DNA of 47,717 nt from a virus, in UHGV virus genome UHGV-0097968, one strand, 5' to 3'. This document shows positions 2,795 to 29,693 of the stretch, one piece after another (the stretch's first letter is position 1; every line of letters starts with the position of its first letter). A program made the position numbers and the translations under genes. Below the pieces are notes generated by a model, which searched no databases, was not told where the DNA came from, and was given only the letters and a program-made list of their open reading frames with translations.

Positions 2795-5007
2795 GCGGTT
2801 TGCTCCTGTGCAGCGGTGAGGGCGGCGAGGCGTTCAGTTTTGATGTCGGTGATACGGCGCAGGCGCGATCCCAGATACGATGAATATTCTTTATCGCCTT
2901 TGGCTTCTGCTGCTTTTCGGTGTACATCCACTTCGCGGGCGATGAGGCCAAATACCTTGTTTACTTCGTTAGTGGTTACCGCGGAGGCCAGCGTATTGGC
3001 AACGTTGATAAGCTTCTCATCCAGTTCCTTACGCAGACGGGTAGCATCTTCCGCATTCTCGCTGGCATTCTTGATATCAAACTCAGCTTTATTCCTCTGG
3101 CGGTATTCCGGATTGTCGTACAGGCCCATGAAAATATCGGCGCTGAATCCGAGAGGGGATAGCGCTTTCTTAACAGCATCCGTCCAGGATTTCTTCGGCG
3201 CTTCGCCGTCGCTTGTTGGTCCGTATTTAGTGTCGTAGATATAAGGTGTGCATCCGTAAGCCTCGGACTCACCGCGCACTCCATTCAATATGTACCAGAC
3301 TCTAACTTTCATGGTGTGGTGCATTTCACATAGGTACCCGCCAACACCGTCTTGAATCAGATCCCATTCTATTTTTTCACCAACCTGTTTTTTGCGAACT
3401 ATCGGTGCGCCTTTATCAAAACGCTCTTCCACCACCTCTACACCCCAGCCAATACCAAACGGCCCAAATTCGCGAGTCGCTTTCATCGCTATATAAGTGC
3501 CGTTGATGGATGTGCCGCCGCCGTCCTGAGAGAAAGCACTGGTGAAGCGCTCATCGGTTTTGAATACGTTCTTCCACAATGCCAGGTTATCTGTGTCGTC
3601 GGAGTCCTTTAACTCCGTTTCGATAGCTGAGATTGCATTCTGCCGCTTGTGCTCTTCGGTATGGATCCGCTCAACCAGCGCGTCAACGTTCTGCACCAGA
3701 TCCTTTACCTGCTCGCTAAGTTTTTCTTGTGGAGGAGTCTCTTCTGCCGGGGTAATAGCTGCAGGTTCCCTCTGTGAGACGGCGTTATTTTCAGGTACGT
3801 CATACACATGGCGAGGCGTGACAAACCGCTCACGCAACTGCTGCAAACTACGTTCTCCAGCATTTGCTGCTTCGCTTTTTTCGCCCTGATTTGAGGGTGT
3901 TTCTGACATCATCCCATCAATTGAGAATCGTCCGCCGCCGTGGTTGGTGACTTTTACATCATCCTTTGGTGCTGCTTCCTTTGGCTTCTCTTCAACAGCA
4001 TTTGCATCACGCTGCCCGTTAGCTTGCAGCCAGTTGTCGATGTGACTGCGCAGGGATTGTGGGAAGTGGTACATGTCTTTTGCGGGGACGCTCTGAATAA
4101 CACCGAATACTGATGCGCGGTCATAGGCAAGGATCTGATCCGTTGTGCGCAGGGCCATTGACCAGCGTTTAAAATCCTCCCGGTCCTGGCTGATTATTTC
4201 GTCTGCCGCTTTCAGGACGCTGGGGGTGATTTTTTCCGGGCCAACGGGTAACAGGGCGCAGGCAATTTCACGATCCAGTGTGGCGTGAGTCTGTTGGTAA
4301 GGACGTGCGGATGCTGTTTCTGGTTTTACCTCCGGCAGCATTTCATCGCGTTTACCGGGATTCTCTACCCATTTTTTTATAAATTTGGAGATAGTCCAAC
4401 TGGTCGGGTTTTGTTCCTGGGTATCGCAACTTGCCAAAATTGCATGTACCAGATTATTCAATCCAGCAATATGCATGTACTCGATGGGCTTACACGCCAC
4501 CATGGCATCAAGAACGATGCGGTTAAACGCGTCAACCTCATCCTCACTGTCAGTATCACTGTTGTCGAGCATCTCCAGGTATTCACGCGTCTGCGCAAGC
4601 AATTCACTGTCGACTTCGTTGGCATCGTGGCTGAACAGCAGGACGGCGGCGAAGCGTTCACGAGCAGGCAGTTTCATCAGGTCGCTAACCTGTGAGATAT
4701 CTGCTGAACTGCAACCTGAATCAACAGGAGTGTTAACTACCCATCTCTCGCCATCAAAACTGTGTTCTGTGGCAAACGTCTCATCAAACTCACCGACGCC
4801 TGGGCGCGGTTGGCCCGGGGCATCTTCCCAGATTTTAGGTTTGAAATAGTTGTCGCCGTGGTCAGGGTAGGTTTCCCACAATTTGCCGATGATGATGTTC
4901 TCGGCAACTTTTTTGTTAGGGGCGTCGATGGCGATGGCCAGCGCCGGGATCGCGCCGTTTTTGAGCGCGCCTTTTTTTGCTTCTAACAAGCCGTTAAAAA
5001 TGGTCAT
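2791..5007 (-). CDS. Large early-region protein (738 aa) with C-terminal region resembling a phage single-strand annealing recombinase (Rad52/Sak/Erf-like); N-terminal/central part acidic and unassigned
   Basis: Long uninterrupted ORF; C-terminal segment ...TREFGPFGIGWGVEV...GYLCEMHHTMKV...KSWTDAVKKALSPLGFSADIF... resembles SSAP cores by motif recollection; start overlaps downstream gene stop. Confidence 0.7.
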   Translation of the reverse strand: MTIFNGLLEAKKGALKNGAIPALAIAIDAPNKKVAENIIIGKLWETYPDHGDNYFKPKIWEDAPGQPRPGVGEFDETFATEHSFDGERWVVNTPVDSGCSSADISQVSDLMKLPARERFAAVLLFSHDANEVDSELLAQTREYLEMLDNSDTDSEDEVDAFNRIVLDAMVACKPIEYMHIAGLNNLVHAILASCDTQEQNPTSWTISKFIKKWVENPGKRDEMLPEVKPETASARPYQQTHATLDREIACALLPVGPEKITPSVLKAADEIISQDREDFKRWSMALRTTDQILAYDRASVFGVIQSVPAKDMYHFPQSLRSHIDNWLQANGQRDANAVEEKPKEAAPKDDVKVTNHGGGRFSIDGMMSETPSNQGEKSEAANAGERSLQQLRERFVTPRHVYDVPENNAVSQREPAAITPAEETPPQEKLSEQVKDLVQNVDALVERIHTEEHKRQNAISAIETELKDSDDTDNLALWKNVFKTDERFTSAFSQDGGGTSINGTYIAMKATREFGPFGIGWGVEVVEERFDKGAPIVRKKQVGEKIEWDLIQDGVGGYLCEMHHTMKVRVWYILNGVRGESEAYGCTPYIYDTKYGPTSDGEAPKKSWTDAVKKALSPLGFSADIFMGLYDNPEYRQRNKAEFDIKNASENAEDATRLRKELDEKLINVANTLASAVTTNEVNKVFGLIAREVDVHRKAAEAKGDKEYSSYLGSRLRRITDIKTERLAALTAAQEQTA

Positions 5008-24066: not shown

Positions 24067-24258
24067 ATGAAAAAGTTCTTTCTACTGGCAGCGTTGGTGC
24101 TTGCGGGTTGCTCAAACACGACGTACACGGAAGCAACGCATCCCAACGGCACGACCGTAAAGCACATTTCTATCGCACCGGGTACGAAGAGCACAACCGC
24201 AAGTGGTGGCTGTATCGACTCTACCGGGGCTGCGGCTTCATGCCCATTGGATCAATGA
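24067..24258 (+). CDS. Small lipoprotein (possible o-spanin-like or entry-exclusion lipoprotein)
   Basis: 63 aa; signal peptide with lipobox LAGC; additional Cys residues; follows endolysin. Confidence 0.55.
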   Translation: MKKFFLLAALVLAGCSNTTYTEATHPNGTTVKHISIAPGTKSTTASGGCIDSTGAAASCPLDQ

Positions 24259-24633
24259 GGGTAATTGGCATAGGCAATTTAACCGTATAAGTGCGCCTTC
24301 ACCGGCTTCCTGCAAATAAGTGCATTTCGTAATTTATAAAGTTCTAAGAAGCAAGTCCATAAGCTTAACATTACAGCACAAACGATCTGTTTTTAGTTCT
24401 ATGGGTGTTCTCTTTTTCGGGAATATATTTTAGTAACCAGAATTAAATTCTAAAAGGCCTTGCAACTGCGGGGCTTTTTTATATCCGTATTTCGCTGCGC
24501 ACCGCATGCGCATATCAACCACCGAACCAGACCCTTTGGAATGAGCCGTTGAGGATGTCAGTTAGTGCTGGCGAGCCTCGGTGGGCTGACTTCCTATGCG
24601 GCAACGGTTCATCTCAAAGAGTAGGTACACGCT

Positions 24634-25131
24634 ATGAAATCATTAACCCTCTTCAATCAACCAATCCGCGTCGGGGATGATGGCATGATCTGCCTCACCG
24701 ACATGTGGAAAGCCAGCGGCAAAAGTGACGCTGAATCGCCGTACCACTATCTGCGAAACAAGCAGACCAAAGAGTTCCTTGTCGAGCTGGAGAAAAACCA
24801 CGAATCTGTGGTTTTCACTGCCCGCGGCGTACACGGCGGAACCTATGGCGGGAAGTTTGTTGCTTACGATTATGCGGCTTGGTTAAACCCAGGGTTCAAG
24901 TATGCAGCCTATAAAGTACTCGATGACTACTTCACCGGAGAGCTTCGGCATCGTAATAGCTTAAGTGCGCAGCTCAACATGAAGTGTTATGAGTTTGACC
25001 AGAAGAAAGACATGGCGAGCTTCTGTGGGCAAGGACTCGCGGCATGGCGTTATACAAAGCCTGTGCTGATCGCTGAGATGAACACCTTGGCAAACCAACT
25101 GCAGATTACGCTCCCTGGACTTCCTGGATGA
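24634..25131 (+). CDS. KilA-N domain protein
   Basis: 165 aa; PIRVGDDGMICLTDMWKASGKS...FVAYDYAAWLNPGFKYAAYKVLDDYF resembles KilA-N. Confidence 0.65.
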   Translation: MKSLTLFNQPIRVGDDGMICLTDMWKASGKSDAESPYHYLRNKQTKEFLVELEKNHESVVFTARGVHGGTYGGKFVAYDYAAWLNPGFKYAAYKVLDDYFTGELRHRNSLSAQLNMKCYEFDQKKDMASFCGQGLAAWRYTKPVLIAEMNTLANQLQITLPGLPG

Positions 25132-25370
25132 GTAATCGCGTCATCGAATGCGCCTCCAGAGCGGGGCGTGACTTCTCAGAGTTCATGAAAGGCGAGAAGG
25201 GTATGGAGGACGCGCTGTCCTCGGTGGATCAGTTTGGCGAGCAGATTCGACTCAACGGCTGCGTCAATCATCACTTTGTCAGTTACATGATGCGTAACGC
25301 GATCATGCAGGCATTCATGGACATGGCAAGCGCTGAGAAAAAAGAAGAGCGCCGACGTAAACGAGCGTAA
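25128..25370 (+). CDS. Hypothetical protein
   Basis: 80-aa ORF overlapping upstream stop. Confidence 0.45.
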   Translation: MSNRVIECASRAGRDFSEFMKGEKGMEDALSSVDQFGEQIRLNGCVNHHFVSYMMRNAIMQAFMDMASAEKKEERRRKRA

Positions 25371-25520
25371 GCAAAAGCTGAGTAGTCATTCCAAAGCTCA
25401 TCCCCGGGTGGGCTTGATAATGGATAGTCATCACAGATTTAAAATGTGGCAATGAAGTCTCTTTAATAAGCCAATTCTTAGCATTATTCTGACCTCTCCA
25501 ATTGAAAAGGAGGTTGAGTA

Positions 25521-25712
25521 ATGTCAGATGAAATCCGTCGCTGTAAAATCGTCAGTATGTATGAACAACCCGAGGGAACGTTCATTAAGTTCGCCCCAGT
25601 GAAATTCTATGACGAAGGCAACAACCCTCATGTCGGCGAGCAAGCAATCGTAGAGATGGATAACGGCAAAGTGATTACCGTAAACCCGGGTGAGATTCAC
25701 TTTATTAAATAG
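25521..25712 (+). CDS. Hypothetical small protein
   Basis: 63-aa ORF with AAGGAGG RBS, followed by terminator. Confidence 0.5.
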   Translation: MSDEIRRCKIVSMYEQPEGTFIKFAPVKFYDEGNNPHVGEQAIVEMDNGKVITVNPGEIHFIK

Positions 25713-25732
25713 TGACAAAACTGATTGTGATG

Positions 25733-25756
25733 AAACCCACTGCGGTGGGTTTTTTA
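25733..25756 (+). terminator. Rho-independent terminator
   Basis: Stem ACCCAC/GTGGGT, loop TGCG, T5. Confidence 0.65.
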
Positions 25757-25820
25757 TTGCTATCACCATGGGCAGACCCATCGTAATGGCAAAAGCAGGG
25801 CGAGGTTATCGCCCTGTGTC

Positions 25821-26090
25821 TTAACCGCGTGCCTCACGACCCTCCTCGTCCTCAGGTACACGATATCGCCAGTATTTGTCCGGCCTAACCCAAACAACAT
25901 CCCCGCCGCTATCAACTCTGAACTTATTTATGACTTTTGTTGAAAGTGCTTGGTTGCCGTCTGCATTTTCCTTCAAATGTTGCTCATTACCAACTTTGAC
26001 CAAATAATCAACGACGTCCTGCTGGTATAAGCATCCATCTTTTTGTAGTGCAGATAACATCCAATTTGATACATCTGCAACAGCTAACAC
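25821..26090 (-). CDS. Hypothetical protein (minus-strand moron)
   Basis: 89-aa ORF downstream of the 26105-26323 gene on the same strand. Confidence 0.4.
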   Translation of the reverse strand: MLAVADVSNWMLSALQKDGCLYQQDVVDYLVKVGNEQHLKENADGNQALSTKVINKFRVDSGGDVVWVRPDKYWRYRVPEDEEGREARG

Positions 26091-26104
26091 AGTGGTTGAT
26101 TGGG

Positions 26105-26323
26105 TTATGGCTTTGGGATGAATTTATCTAACGACTCTTCTGGGAAATTACCACTGTCTAATTTCCTTCCTGCAAACCATTGGCAACGGTAGTTACCATT
26201 GAAGGTATCCGATAAGGTAGTAAGTGGTTTTTCAACAGTCATTGCTGGGCCACCTGATTTCAATACGACTAGCTCCCCTTTATTAAATTTTGCAACTGGA
26301 GTTTGTGAAGGTGCTTTAGCCAT
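26105..26323 (-). CDS. DUF2158 (YodC-like) small protein
   Basis: 72 aa; KFNKGELVVLKSGGPAMTV...QWFAG motif; AAGGA RBS. Confidence 0.55.
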   Translation of the reverse strand: MAKAPSQTPVAKFNKGELVVLKSGGPAMTVEKPLTTLSDTFNGNYRCQWFAGRKLDSGNFPEESLDKFIPKP

Positions 26324-26430
26324 TTTATGTCCTTAAAAGTTAGTGATATGACAATGATTAGATGGCGACAATAGGTATAAATTTCAATAATAACAACTTG
26401 ACTTAGCTCACAAAATTTAAAGGAAATCTT

Positions 26431-26600
26431 ATGGCAAAACCGAACTGGGGAGCACTGCAACACCAGTTCCTCGCCGACCATGCCAAAACGGGTATATCAC
26501 CGAAAGAATGGTGTGACGCGTAGGGACTGAGCTACGCAACAGCTCGCCGACGTATAAAAAACAACTGCGCAATGTGCCAAAGAGCTGGTGGCTGATGAAA
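26431..26600 (+). pseudogene. Decayed 5' remnant of a terminase small-subunit-like gene (in-frame TAG plus frameshift)
   Basis: MAKPNWGALQHQFLADHAKTGISPKEWCDA then TAG where intact homologues, as I recall, continue QGL...TARR..IK; reading frame then shifts and terminates. Confidence 0.4.
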
Positions 26601-26661
26601 GAGACGCTTTACTTTAACGAGAGGCCGCCTTTTTGTTTTAAGGCGGCACACATTCAACAGA

Positions 26662-26922
26662 TTAAGGTAACTGATTTGACCATTTTGTTGCGCGCCAGTT
26701 GTTCTGAACCATAATCTTCTGAAGTATCTCATCTGAAGGCTCTGCTTCGCCGCTTAGCCATTCTCTTAAAGTTGAACAATTTAGATAAGAGGAGTTCGCA
26801 CGATAAAAAGATACGATGGCGTCCTCTGATAACGTCTCAGGAAACTTTTTTGGGTCAGCTTCTTTTAATATTACGCTCATTAAGGCTTCAATTTTTTCTC
26901 TGTTCATTTTTTGCGTTCTCAT
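26662..26922 (-). CDS. Hypothetical protein (weak)
   Basis: 86-aa ORF in AT-rich segment between packaging-gene remnant and cos; poor RBS. Confidence 0.3.
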   Translation of the reverse strand: MRTQKMNREKIEALMSVILKEADPKKFPETLSEDAIVSFYRANSSYLNCSTLREWLSGEAEPSDEILQKIMVQNNWRATKWSNQLP

Positions 26923-27197
26923 GGTTGTTGTTTTTCTGTAAGGATATCAATAAGTTCAAGATATATACATATATCGAAAACTTGTTCGGTAGTCTATCGA
27001 TACAGCGCAAAAGGATGGCTCGCTGCCAAAGTGAAAGCTTACGCTGATAATCAGATACACAAAGCTGATGTATGCAAACAAGTACGCCGCGAGGCTACAG
27101 TCGAGTTTGATGAACCTGATGCGAGCCCCCGATTCCTGTCCTGAAAGGGAGATAGCCCACCCTGGTCGCGGGTCCTTTCCGAAATCCAAAACACCGA

Positions 27198-27277
27198 GGG
27201 TCGGTAGACGCGCAAAAACTCGCTCGTTTTTAGTATTTTTTCATTTTGGGTATTTCCGGTTCCGGTGAGGATTTTTA
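27198..27277. other. Candidate cos region (cosN-like GGGTCGGTAGAC followed by TTTCCGGTT-type cosB motifs)
   Basis: Located immediately upstream of Nu1-like terS; resembles my recollection of lambda cosN GGGCGGCGACCT and downstream TTTCCGGTT motifs. Confidence 0.35.
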
Positions 27278-27844
27278 ATGGCAAGTCAGGCTGAGGTCGC
27301 AGCACATTTATTGCTATCAGATCGTCGTCTGCGCGATCTCGCAAAACTTCCGGGAGCTCCAGTCCCCCAAGGACGTGGCGATTGGGACCTTGATGCCTGG
27401 CGCCATTTTTATATTCATTATCTCCGGAGCAATAGACGCGACACAATTGGTACAGACGAACCGGAAGTGGGGGACAATTCTCCCGAAAAAAATCGCGAGC
27501 AGTGGTTGAAAAATGAGGAACGGCAGGAGCGAATCCTGATGGCTCGCGTGAAACGCCGCATTCTTGCTAAACGCTACGCGCCAATTGAATTAATTAGCGT
27601 CGCTGTATCTCGCGTCGCCGTTGAATTACGTACCCGCGTCGAGTCGTGGCCACCACGATTGAAAAAGGTGTGGCCTGAAATGCCGCAGGAGGCGAGCAGT
27701 GTATTACGAGAGGAGCTGGCGATAGCCCTGAATGAACTGGCAGACATACGAGTCGACTTCAGCGATTACGATGTCAGCGATATCGAACGCGATCTCGACA
27801 GGGTTGAATCCCTTGCGCGTGACGATACCGATGACGGGGGTTGA
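27278..27844 (+). CDS. Terminase small subunit (Nu1-like)
   Basis: 188-aa ORF directly upstream of and overlapping the gpA-like large terminase gene. Confidence 0.7.
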   Translation: MASQAEVAAHLLLSDRRLRDLAKLPGAPVPQGRGDWDLDAWRHFYIHYLRSNRRDTIGTDEPEVGDNSPEKNREQWLKNEERQERILMARVKRRILAKRYAPIELISVAVSRVAVELRTRVESWPPRLKKVWPEMPQEASSVLREELAIALNELADIRVDFSDYDVSDIERDLDRVESLARDDTDDGG

Positions 27845-29693
27845 GTGGGCTGATAAATATTTTTATCTCCCTGAGGGCTCCAGCCACATCGCTGGCCACT
27901 GGACGACTCAGCCGGTCCAGGTAGTGATGCTCAATATGATGACTAACGACGCGATAAAAATCGTGTCTGTTCGCAAATCAGCTCGTCTCGGTTATACAAA
28001 AATACTCGTCGCGGCGCTGCTCTATTTCGCTGAGCACAAAAAACGTAGTGCCGTGGTCTATCAGCCTATCGATGACGAATCGGATGGATTTGTCGCCGAC
28101 GAGGTTGACCCCGCTATCGCCGAAATGCCGGTGATTCAGAAAATTTTCCCCGACTGGGATAAAAGCAACGAGCGTAACAATCTCCAGCGTAAAGAAATGA
28201 ACGGCGCGATTATTGATTTTCGCGGCGCGAGTACGCCAGGAAATTTCCGGCGACTAACGAAACAGGTTGTCGAGGGTGACGAAGTTGACGGCTGGCCGCT
28301 GGAAGTTGCCAAAAAAGGCAAAGGCGAGGGCTCGCCCATCGAACTGGCGCTCGTTCGAATTAAAGGGGCAGCGTACCCGAAGGCGATTTTCGGTTCGACA
28401 CCGACAGTCACCGGTAAAAGTCATATCGAAATGTTGGAAGACGCTGCTGATCTGACATTTCGTTTTTACCTGAAGTGTCCGCATTGTAGCGAGGAGCAGA
28501 CCCTAGTATTTGGTTTCGACGGTATCGAATACGGTCTCAAGTGGGATGACAGCCTGCAGACTAACGAGTCGAAATCGTCGTCCGCGTATTACCAGTGCTG
28601 CCACTGCCCGGAGCATTTTTACTATCGCGATCTCGAAAAAATGGAGCTCGGGGGGCGCTGGATAGCCGAGGACTGCACCTGGACCCGAGACGGAATCCAT
28701 TTTTTTGATCATGACGGTGGCGTCGTTCGCGCGCCGAAACACGCGGCGATCGTGATAAACGCCCTGTATTCACTAAACCTCGATGGATGGGGCGAGATTG
28801 TCAGCGAGTGGCTGAAAGCGAAGGGTGACCCACTCAAAGAAAAAACGTTTCATAACACGACGCTCGGCGAACTCTGGAGCGACGTAGCCAGCGAGCAGCT
28901 GGAGCACGATATTCTGGTTAATCGCCGGGAAAAATACGCCAGCCAGGTTCCTGACGGTGTTGTTTATATAACCGGTGGCATCGACTCTCAGACGTCCGGG
29001 CGCTACGAGTGTTACGTATGGGGATGGGGAGCCGAGGAAGAGTGCTGGTTGATTGATAAAACCATCGTCCTCGGTCGCTACGACGAGGAGGACACGCTGC
29101 AGCGCGTCGACGGAGTGATTCGCAAACAATACCGGCGCAGCGACGGGACCACAATCGGCGTCAGTCGCTGGGCGTGGGATACCGGTGGTATAGATGCGCA
29201 GGTCGTTTATAACCGCTCGCTGAAACTCGGTCCGCTGTGGGTCATTCCAATTAAAGGTGCGAGCTCATACGGTCAGCCAGTCGTAAATATGCCGCGTACA
29301 CGTAACGCGAATAAAGTCTATTTGTCGTTAATCGGTACTGATACGGCAAAAGATTTGCTCGCAATGCGCCTGCCGCTGGAACCCGATTCTAAATCGGCGA
29401 CACCAGGTGCGATTCATTTTCCCAACGACGTCGAAATATTCGGCACAACAGAGGCAAAACAGCTCGTTTCTGAAGTTCTGATCCCGAAACTGATTAACGG
29501 TCGCGTCGTTTATCGCTGGGACAACCAGGGCCGGCGAAATGAAGCTCTCGACTGCTGGGTATACGGGCTGGCTGCGCTGCGTATCAGTAAAATTCGTTTC
29601 CAGCTCAATCTCGAGGCGCTCGCTGAGCAACGGAAAAAATCACAAAACAAACTGTCTCTCGAGGAGATGGCGAGAATGCTCGGAGGGAGCTAA
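27732..29693 (+). CDS. Terminase large subunit, lambda gpA family
   Basis: 653 aa with extended similarity to lambda gpA by recollection (VEWAD..YLP, KSARLGYTK, CPHC, IPIKGAS, RRNEALDC); true start may be the ATG at 27831 overlapping the terS stop. Confidence 0.95.
   Translation: MNWQTYESTSAITMSAISNAISTGLNPLRVTIPMTGVEWADKYFYLPEGSSHIAGHWTTQPVQVVMLNMMTNDAIKIVSVRKSARLGYTKILVAALLYFAEHKKRSAVVYQPIDDESDGFVADEVDPAIAEMPVIQKIFPDWDKSNERNNLQRKEMNGAIIDFRGASTPGNFRRLTKQVVEGDEVDGWPLEVAKKGKGEGSPIELALVRIKGAAYPKAIFGSTPTVTGKSHIEMLEDAADLTFRFYLKCPHCSEEQTLVFGFDGIEYGLKWDDSLQTNESKSSSAYYQCCHCPEHFYYRDLEKMELGGRWIAEDCTWTRDGIHFFDHDGGVVRAPKHAAIVINALYSLNLDGWGEIVSEWLKAKGDPLKEKTFHNTTLGELWSDVASEQLEHDILVNRREKYASQVPDGVVYITGGIDSQTSGRYECYVWGWGAEEECWLIDKTIVLGRYDEEDTLQRVDGVIRKQYRRSDGTTIGVSRWAWDTGGIDAQVVYNRSLKLGPLWVIPIKGASSYGQPVVNMPRTRNANKVYLSLIGTDTAKDLLAMRLPLEPDSKSATPGAIHFPNDVEIFGTTEAKQLVSEVLIPKLINGRVVYRWDNQGRRNEALDCWVYGLAALRISKIRFQLNLEALAEQRKKSQNKLSLEEMARMLGGS

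Follow-up and report, generated by a model that had tools for sequence, protein, structure and literature searches.

A decaying small-terminase remnant, an antisense gene and a predicted cos site at the lysis-to-packaging junction of a mosaic temperate phage

Among the closest described counterparts of the locus analyzed here, a stretch lying between the lysis and packaging genes of UHGV virus genome UHGV-0097968, are the cos sites of phages lambda and N15 and the small terminases of the Terminase_2 type. The genome, 47,717 nucleotides (nt) in length, is referred to as the window, and its full length supplies all coordinates; the part in question, read as belonging to a prophage late region, contains the remnant of a small-terminase gene (terS, encoding TerS), a gene antisense to the late operon, and a candidate cos site in front of a working terS. 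In lambda, a conserved 7-bp subsite termed cosQ signals the nick made by terminase at the end of the packaged genome, while at cosN the CG dinucleotides flanking the nicks are highly conserved and of the cohesive end it is the left half that is under selection (Feiss et al., 2015; PMC4669245). The cosB site of N15 is of a simple type, consisting of a single critical R3 site at bp 48-59 and, inside gene 1, an inverted site at bp 249-260 that is named rR2 (Feiss et al., 2015; PMC4669245). The intact Terminase_2-type small terminases of Klebsiella phages 5 LV-2017 and ST405-OXA48phi1.3 are built from a helix-turn-helix (HTH) at residues 1-45, a repetitive linker of the TAQK type, and the Pfam Terminase_2 core (PF03592) from residue 75, and the large terminase (TerL) encoded beside them is of the Terminase_6N/6C type. 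The reading favored here, to which we assign a probability of roughly 0.82, is that the window preserves the lysis-to-packaging junction of a mosaic temperate phage, in which a dead stub of a Terminase_2-type terS, an antisense gene, and a lambda-like cos site stand side by side.

Identification of the stub begins with an open reading frame (ORF) at 26431-26523 whose translation, MAKPNWGALQHQFLADHAKTGISPKEWCDA, was given exactly in a first-pass annotation of this DNA and which stops at a TAG (26521-26523). When this codon is read through, the frame goes on as GLSYATARRRIK, and the repaired 43-residue peptide matches PHROG 51 and PHROG 370, both designated 'terminase small subunit', over positions 1-43 (E 8e-17 and 1e-16, respectively) as well as PHROG 32222 (E 1e-21). 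Over 47 residues, the repaired peptide shares 68% of its amino acids with TerS (330 aa) of Klebsiella phages 5 LV-2017 and ST405-OXA48phi1.3. At the DNA level, 90% identity links the stub to the beginning of a 247-aa gene that lies directly upstream of TerL in Klebsiella phage RothC and whose product is a full-length PHROG 370 member (E 2e-84). With a more sensitive DNA search, homology to the 330-aa terS genes spans 26421-26587. Overall, the first 43-59 codons of the intact genes are homologous to the stub, with amino acid identities of 65-68% to the TerS of 5 LV-2017 and ST405-OXA48phi1.3 and DNA identities of 76-90% across these two phages and RothC. The first-pass annotation had taken the fragment for the N-terminal HTH of a different small-terminase family and had proposed comparing it with phage small terminases; that comparison returned the matches listed above, and the assignment is borne out, the HTH of a Terminase_2/PHROG 51-370 small terminase being present in the stub.

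The remainder of the gene is damaged or missing. Codon 31, a TAG in the window, is CAG in sister prophages and in the intact genes, and approximately 2 nt have been lost at an A-run (26556-26561), resulting in a frameshift after codon 43; the succession of an in-frame stop and a frameshift noted in the first-pass annotation is thus real in both parts. Beyond the frameshift, frame 2 reads KTTAQCAKELVADERDALL before a stop codon and aligns with KKPTAQ...KCAEELVDDDGL of the intact protein, an alignment that requires the deletion of about 17 linker codons (about 51 nt) between repeated ACTGCGCAA motifs. Homology stops at about 26607, a position equivalent to approximately codon 75 in an intact gene and hence to the expected beginning of the Terminase_2 core; the PF03592 core is not present in the stub, and no downstream frame matches it. 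What survives on the plus strand is some 177 bp (26431-26607) of a roughly 1-kb gene, close to the 170 bp estimated at first, and in contrast to the intact genes it consists of the HTH and part of the linker in a broken frame, with an adjacent TerL that is not of the Terminase_6 type. Recognition of the stub has a precedent, as it has already been identified in one genome, Escherichia coli W284, by NCBI's Prokaryotic Genome Annotation Pipeline (PGAP), which calls it 'terminase small subunit, incomplete', with the C-terminus missing.

The position at which terS homology ends is also a mosaic junction. Phage vB_EcoM-705R4 is 96-99% identical to the window from 26608 rightwards and also over the lysis genes, and between those two blocks it has about 19 nt where the window has 2.4 kb. 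Four further loci (L023 and L031-33) are arranged like 705R4, with the lysis cassette directly abutting 26608 and no stub. The stub is carried by nine loci from IMG/VR and Escherichia whittamii in addition to E. coli E24377A, W284, and GF43; every copy is fused to the same right-hand sequence at the same base, and the left flanks are mutually unrelated. Because the 3' frameshift and the junction are common to all copies, the crossover happened once. The stub is itself composite: its first 60 nt, together with the left flank in the window, are RothC-like (90%), and from about 26492 onwards the window shows 97-98% identity to the E24377A type, itself 5 LV-2017-like over its whole length. This two-part ancestry implies that the left arm now present was acquired later, by homologous exchange within the stub.

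Together these observations point to the following course of events, the order of which we infer from the sequence comparisons. An illegitimate crossover would have joined the left arm of a phage with a Terminase_2-type terminase to position 26608 of a lambda-type cos phage. The donor of the left arm would have possessed a terminase normally paired with a Terminase_6 TerL, while the right-hand parent would have contributed cos packaging and the head module, and the stretch 26608-27169, with its hairpin and low-GC antisense gene, would belong to that same parent. The 5' 60 nt of the stub would afterwards have been re-exchanged by homologous recombination with another terS of the same family. 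The first-pass annotation had described the locus as the scar of a packaging-module replacement; the recombination junction is supported by the stub-free loci of the 705R4 type, and the direction implied by 'replacement' is a matter on which the sequence is neutral. As read from the sequence, the replacement of a packaging module and the joining of a foreign left arm are one and the same crossover seen from either parent.

The alternative that survives best, and that we regard as possible if clearly the less probable account, holds that the stub arrived within an accessory cassette (KilA-N, DUF6953, YodC, other genes, and the truncated terS) inserted into a 705R4-like phage whose resident packaging module was never replaced. 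Such an insertion is suggested by the direct contact between the lysis cassette and 26608 in stub-free loci, by the 0.8-2.4 kb of variable extra DNA that separates the lysis genes from the stub in stub-bearing loci, and by lysis cassettes that are 85-98% identical on the two sides, as if the left crossover had been a homologous one. However, lineages differ in having unrelated cassettes upstream of the stub, and the break in homology falls exactly at the ATG, so that the stub and its present left flank do not form one unit; in a megablast search of 25760-26600 against E. coli genomes, the YodC/DUF6953 block was found beside the stub only in strain GF43. Moreover, insertion of a cassette is again one crossover described from the side of the other parent, and the two views are not separable by sequence.

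To the right of the junction, the first-pass annotation had recorded an AT-rich segment with a weak antisense ORF. The composition was correctly noted, GC content falling to 34-39% within 26700-27000 as against about 50% on either side, but the ORF proves to be a conserved gene, the product of which matches PHROG 5191 from end to end (E 6.6e-61). From the start at 26922 the minus-strand frame encodes 86 aa; a full HMMER search recovered four more homologues (36-52% identity, all of 81-85 aa, so that length is conserved), and since all four start at query residue 6, the likely gene is 26662-26907, encoding 81 aa from a conserved Met. Close homologues were confined to Escherichia in a word-based search. 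One distant homologue, on contig L043, likewise lies antisense, between a lysis cassette and a module comprising HNH, Terminase_4, TerL, and portal genes.

Morons, in the concept of Juhala and Hendrix, are independent, compositionally distinct genes lodged among phage late genes. The PHROG 5191 gene shows a distinct composition and is present or absent between collinear phages: it is low in GC, antisense to the late operon, and variably present among relatives with the same neighbors, and a homologue holds an equivalent junction in a phage whose terminase is of another kind. Since Enterobacter, Aeromonas, and further relatives have the cos of the window but not the gene, it behaves like moron cargo at the lysis/packaging junction and not like a component of the packaging signal. 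On the same L043 contig, a protein of the Acb2/Tad1-hairpin family (by its Pfam name an anti-CBASS/anti-Thoeris sponge) is encoded at 3469-3708 between the lysis genes and the terminase, another sign that this junction collects accessory genes.

The function of the PHROG 5191 product is hinted at by structure prediction. Pfam returned only a sub-threshold HTH_3 match (E 0.014), and NCBIfam and PADLOC returned nothing. A model built from the single sequence was poor (predicted local distance difference test score, pLDDT, 64.5), while an alignment-based model was good (pLDDT 85.7) and depicts a small, all-alpha bundle of four to five helices. The best Foldseek matches of this model in PDB and BFVD were Xre-type HTH domains at non-significant scores (E at least 0.5), and the model thus offers a hint of an HTH protein. 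Upstream of the gene, an AT-rich imperfect palindrome with 18-nt arms that are 78% complementary (26949-26986) could, judged by its form and position, be an operator. A GC-rich hairpin with an 8-bp stem and an 8-nt loop (26624-26647) separates the stub from the 3' end of the antisense gene; its predicted folding energy of -16 to -17 kcal/mol (z -3.2 and -3.6) makes it a possible bidirectional terminator, although it has no U-tract and was not called by a consensus terminator scan.

Could the PHROG 5191 gene and the AT-rich stretch nevertheless be part of the packaging signal, for example by encoding a cos-accessory DNA-bending protein that binds the palindrome? The gene always lies directly left of cos in the Escherichia lineage, the palindrome sits between the two, and the modeled fold weakly resembles Xre-type HTH domains. 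We nonetheless consider this very improbable, for Enterobacter mori, IMG/VR loci with a TerS of 86-87% identity, and relatives in Aeromonas, Microbulbifer, and Photobacterium all keep the same cos yet lack the gene; in addition, its homologue adjoins an unrelated HNH/Terminase_4 module, and the fold matches are not significant. A further locus (L028; IMG/VR UViG_2778261251_000020) lacks half of the gene and the palindrome. The clean deletion of about 300 bp in this locus, equivalent to 26804-27101 of the window, takes the N-terminal half of the PHROG 5191 gene, the palindrome, and sequence up to about 70 nt before cosQ, and the gene is thus evidently dispensable for keeping the element in its genome.

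The predicted cos site itself begins with the cosQ-like heptamer GGGTCCT on the plus strand (27170-27176), which forms the left edge of the packaging module conserved across genera. The heptamer is identical to the 7-bp cosQ of lambda (48473-48479), is also present in N15 and in the Aeromonas phage phiARM81ld, and does not vary in any locus whose alignment extends that far. The distance from its start to the first base of the cohesive end is 30 nt in lambda and phiARM81ld and 29-30 nt in the window, the spacing to the nick being the same as in lambda within 1 nt. The first-pass annotation had singled out 27190-27277 for comparison with lambda cos; homology was indeed found there, and the perfect cosQ falls just outside that stretch. 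The lambda-like cos-type sequence that it had noted, GGGTCGGTAGAC at 27198-27209, was right to within one base and is less supported than GGTCGGTAGACG at 27199-27210 (plus strand), which is the 12-nt 5' overhang predicted here, with a positional uncertainty of 1-2 nt.

Evidence for this placement comes from the termini of phage database records. In four Aeromonas phage records, the small-terminase gene starts 78 nt from the end of the record, in either orientation, and window position 27199 is aligned by blastn to bp 1 or to the last base of these four records, again in both orientations. The records of PhAER-1 and PhAER-5 carry GGGCGTTAGACC at both ends (with two extra bases at the right end of PhAER-5), just as the N15 record duplicates its annotated 12-base sticky end, while phiARM81ld has GGGCGTTAGACC once, following the lambda convention; no description of the cos site or ends of phiARM81ld was found in the literature citing it. 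The predicted end GGTCGGTAGACG agrees with the Aeromonas end at 9/12 bases and with that of lambda at only 6/12, although five of the six bases of the left half are shared with lambda. The lambdoid E. coli phage SerU-LTIIb has the same cosQ-to-cosN sub-type, being 84% identical over 27170-27219, including ...GGTCTGGGGACG followed by CGCAAAAAC. Finally, 20 distinct upstream regions, taken from Escherichia, Enterobacter mori, uncultured viral contigs, Microbulbifer, Photobacterium, and Aeromonas, were aligned; they resemble one another from exactly cosQ onwards, with their differences clustered in the middle of cosN.

The genes to the right are those expected of a lambda-like packaging module. 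The working terS (27278-27844, plus strand) encodes 188 aa and belongs to PHROG 57, as does lambda Nu1; its relatives in Aeromonas phages are 45-47% identical. It is followed on the same strand by a gpA-type TerL gene (27830-29693), the start of which is uncertain as the ORF is open from 27732, with Pfam matches to GpA_ATPase (E 1e-45) and GpA_nuclease (E 2.5e-63). In E. coli GF43 (L003, 4440-4745) and E24377A (L004, 4047-4352), PGAP annotates a small terminase of 102 aa that begins at the residue corresponding to Met88 of the window; the full 188-aa frame, an N-terminal HTH-like segment, and the ribosome-binding site are conserved out to Aeromonas, and the 102-aa entries are therefore probably truncated at the N-terminus. 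In Enterobacter mori LMG 25706 (L019, 2501-2760), terS is broken after about 75 codons, leaving an 86-codon ORF whose sequence diverges after NSLEKN, and the cos region is intact; this locus is probably a defective prophage.

A reading of the conserved block 5' of terS as a late-gene regulatory or translation-initiation region, with packaging initiated elsewhere or by headful, could appeal to the presence of the terS ribosome-binding site within the block, to the fact that the prophage ends are predicted from sequence, and to the three occurrences of GGGTCCT in the window, a number that chance predicts. There is little chance that it is correct. The TerL is of the gpA type by both its ATPase and endonuclease domains, four phage records end at the aligned base, with a 12-nt terminal duplication in PhAER-1 and PhAER-5, the cosQ heptamer, its spacing, and the CGC on the right flank match lambda and N15, and conservation across genera starts at cosQ and not at a promoter. 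With the block read as a cos site, the gpA-type TerL would nick cosN 22-23 bp beyond cosQ, at positions 12 bp apart, to generate the 12-nt 5' ends GGTCGGTAGACG; packaging would run rightwards through terS, and at the next cos, cosQ would license the terminating nick.

Comparison of the cosB region with lambda and N15 places the locus nearer to the latter. On the plus strand at 27252-27265, that is, bp 54-67 from the predicted end, lies ATTTCCGGTTCCGG, a candidate TerS-binding site containing a tandem TTCCGG that is nearly invariant across six genera, Photobacterium having TTTCCGGTTTCCGG instead. Counted from the predicted end, its TTTCCG occupies the same bases as lambda R3 (GTTTCCGTTC, bp 54-63), and the block also covers the position of N15 R3. 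One correction to the first-pass annotation concerns the TTTCCGG block, whose counterpart in lambda is R3 and not the TTTCCGGTT found at bp 38-46 of lambda. The leader comprises only 79 nt and therefore leaves no room for the R3-I1-R2-R1 array of lambda: the interval from cosN to the terS start is about 66 bp in the window as against 178 bp in lambda, and the arrangement of R2, R1, and the integration host factor site (I1) upstream of terS is lacking.

Inside the working terS, GAACCGGAA (27458-27466, minus strand) is a perfect inverted copy of TTCCGGTTC (27254-27262), the core of the R3-like block, and is situated about 195 bp beyond ATTTCCGGTTCCGG, at a distance of about 260 bp from the predicted end. 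In TerS it specifies E-P-E, an island without variation in an otherwise variable linker. The codons CCG GAA are identical in 6/6 divergent genes, while a single codon is kept in only 9/46 invariant degenerate columns and in none of the five other Pro columns, a pattern that suggests selection acting on the intragenic copy at the level of DNA. In the window, as in the simple cosB of N15, one R-like site stands upstream of terS, the leader is short, and terS itself contains an inverted R-like copy: terS starts at bp 80 in the window and at bp 89 in N15, the one R-type site is at the R3 position in each, and the intragenic copy lies at about the same distance from the end as rR2. The R sequences, in contrast, are unrelated (ATTTCCGGTTCCGG in the window, GAGGTTGTTGTT in N15), and a different packaging specificity would accordingly be expected from the sequence. 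By the lambda/N15 model (PMC4669245), TerS would bind the TTCCGG block at the R3 position and thereby place the gpA-type TerL on cosN, with an accessory role for the intragenic inverted copy. At the level of sequence, then, the cos of the window belongs with the lambda-like group and with the simple-cosB sub-type typified by N15, with a different R sequence.

Close counterparts too are the Aeromonas phages phiARM81ld, PhAER-1, PhAER-2, PhAER-5, and PCAh2, which share not only the TerS identity, cohesive end, and record ends described above but also the inverted copy within terS, the R3-like block, and a leader of 78-79 nt with an identity of about 75-79%. They differ from the window in host genus, in that phiARM81ld is a linear plasmid prophage, and in their upstream sequence, which carries a terminator hairpin in place of the PHROG 5191 gene and the terS stub.

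Several points weigh against the overall reading. Firstly, the end position is a prediction from sequence for the prophage and for its relatives of more than 80% identity, and the left nick is ambiguous: local alignment and dyad symmetry place it at 27199, the cosQ and R3 spacing relative to Aeromonas at 27200, and CG dinucleotides on both flanks would need an end at 27197-27208. If 27199 is taken as bp 1, CG stands on the right flank, but the left flank, unlike that of lambda, is AG. Secondly, TerS falls below the threshold of Pfam Phage_Nu1, giving no match, and its BLASTP similarity to Nu1 is weak and restricted to the C-terminal part (E 3e-4). Thirdly, the argument from synonymous sites for the intragenic copy depends on two codons. 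Fourthly, a minus-strand scan for a sigma-70 consensus promoter for the PHROG 5191 gene found none. Lastly, tblastx detected no similarity between the left flanks of six stub-bearing loci and the sequences flanking three intact Klebsiella terS genes, and the stub is consequently not demonstrable in its native upstream context.

The history of the stub since the crossover is legible in its lesions. The 5' lesions vary by lineage: the window has the TAG, GF43 has the TAG and a 1-nt deletion, the W284 type has no start codon, and the E24377A type retains CAG at codon 31 but carries indels and a stop at codons 3-8. Lesions that differ at the 5' end, together with a shared 3' junction, form the pattern of a pseudogene, and by its sequence the stub is decaying and without function. 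That the 30-codon ORF or its read-through product might instead be a functional small HTH protein or regulatory peptide, as could be argued from the clean ATG and plausible Shine-Dalgarno sequence (AGGAAATCTTATG) kept in the window, from a different upstream ATG that opens a 59-codon frame through the same HTH in E24377A-type loci, and from retention of the stub in 9/15 related IMG/VR and genome loci, is the least credible of the alternatives, given that the lesions are unlike between lineages as fits neutral decay, that a 30-aa product would stop inside the HTH, and that the 3' part is frameshifted in every copy.

The stub also contains a Chi site, GCTGGTGG, on the plus strand at 26584-26591, at a distance of 608 nt to the left of cosN. 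For RecBCD that enters a cut cos and travels to the left, this Chi would be in the active orientation. Intact terS genes have the motif as ancestral coding sequence (E-L-V), and three stub lineages no longer possess it. As a cause of the junction it was rejected, two Chi sites in the window being within chance.

Upstream of the stub region, the late region carries a Q antiterminator, holins, and an endolysin, followed by accessory genes: a KilA-N/ORF11CD3 gene (24634-25131), two small ORFs, and then, on the minus strand, genes for a DUF6953 protein (25821-26090) and a YodC/DUF2158 protein (26105-26323). The KilA-N/ORF11CD3 protein has a weak PADLOC match to the candidate defence family PDC-S22 (E 7e-8). 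Among complete E. coli genomes, the block comprising these genes (24245-26430) occurs together with the stub only in GF43. In the intergenic DNA just 5' of the stub (26366-26400), 32 nt are 100% identical to a CRISPR spacer of E. coli 2017-02-2CC located in the type I-E CRISPR-1 array (iap-cas2e); in the window the protospacer is followed by CTT, corresponding to the canonical AAG protospacer-adjacent motif on the spacer-identical strand, and the identity and the motif together indicate that this phage region has been sampled by CRISPR adaptation. On the other side, the small and large terminase genes are followed by gpW, the portal, and the remaining lambda-like head module. None of the other ORFs that overlap 26532-27446 matches a PHROG, and they were set aside as spurious; an Rfam search of the region returned no family, and a scan of the region for promoters and terminators gave nothing usable.

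Taken together, the locus is an instance of ordinary phage mosaicism and overturns nothing in current understanding. Its value lies in part in annotation, since it settles the identity of a region that pipelines leave as 'hypothetical' and locates the probable genome ends of a common E. coli prophage family, the cos-proximal block being present in 488 of 5426 complete E. coli genomes. It further provides a clean, datable illegitimate crossover inside a terminase gene, succeeded by a second homologous exchange within the stub. Of modest interest besides is a by-product, the simple cosB with its tandem TTCCGG site, which is widely conserved. Tentatively, and with odds against both parts holding at once, the TTCCGG-tandem R site and the intragenic inverted copy may define a distinct lambda-like simple-cosB packaging specificity, widespread in Escherichia, Enterobacter, Aeromonas, Microbulbifer, and Photobacterium and built on a cosQ and cosN shared with lambdoid phages such as SerU-LTIIb, while the stub with its Chi site may persist as a homology patch for exchange of left arms between cos-type and Terminase_2-type phages. 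As a natural second example of an N15-style simple cosB with a different recognition sequence, the locus could be used to test how an R site and an intragenic copy position TerL.

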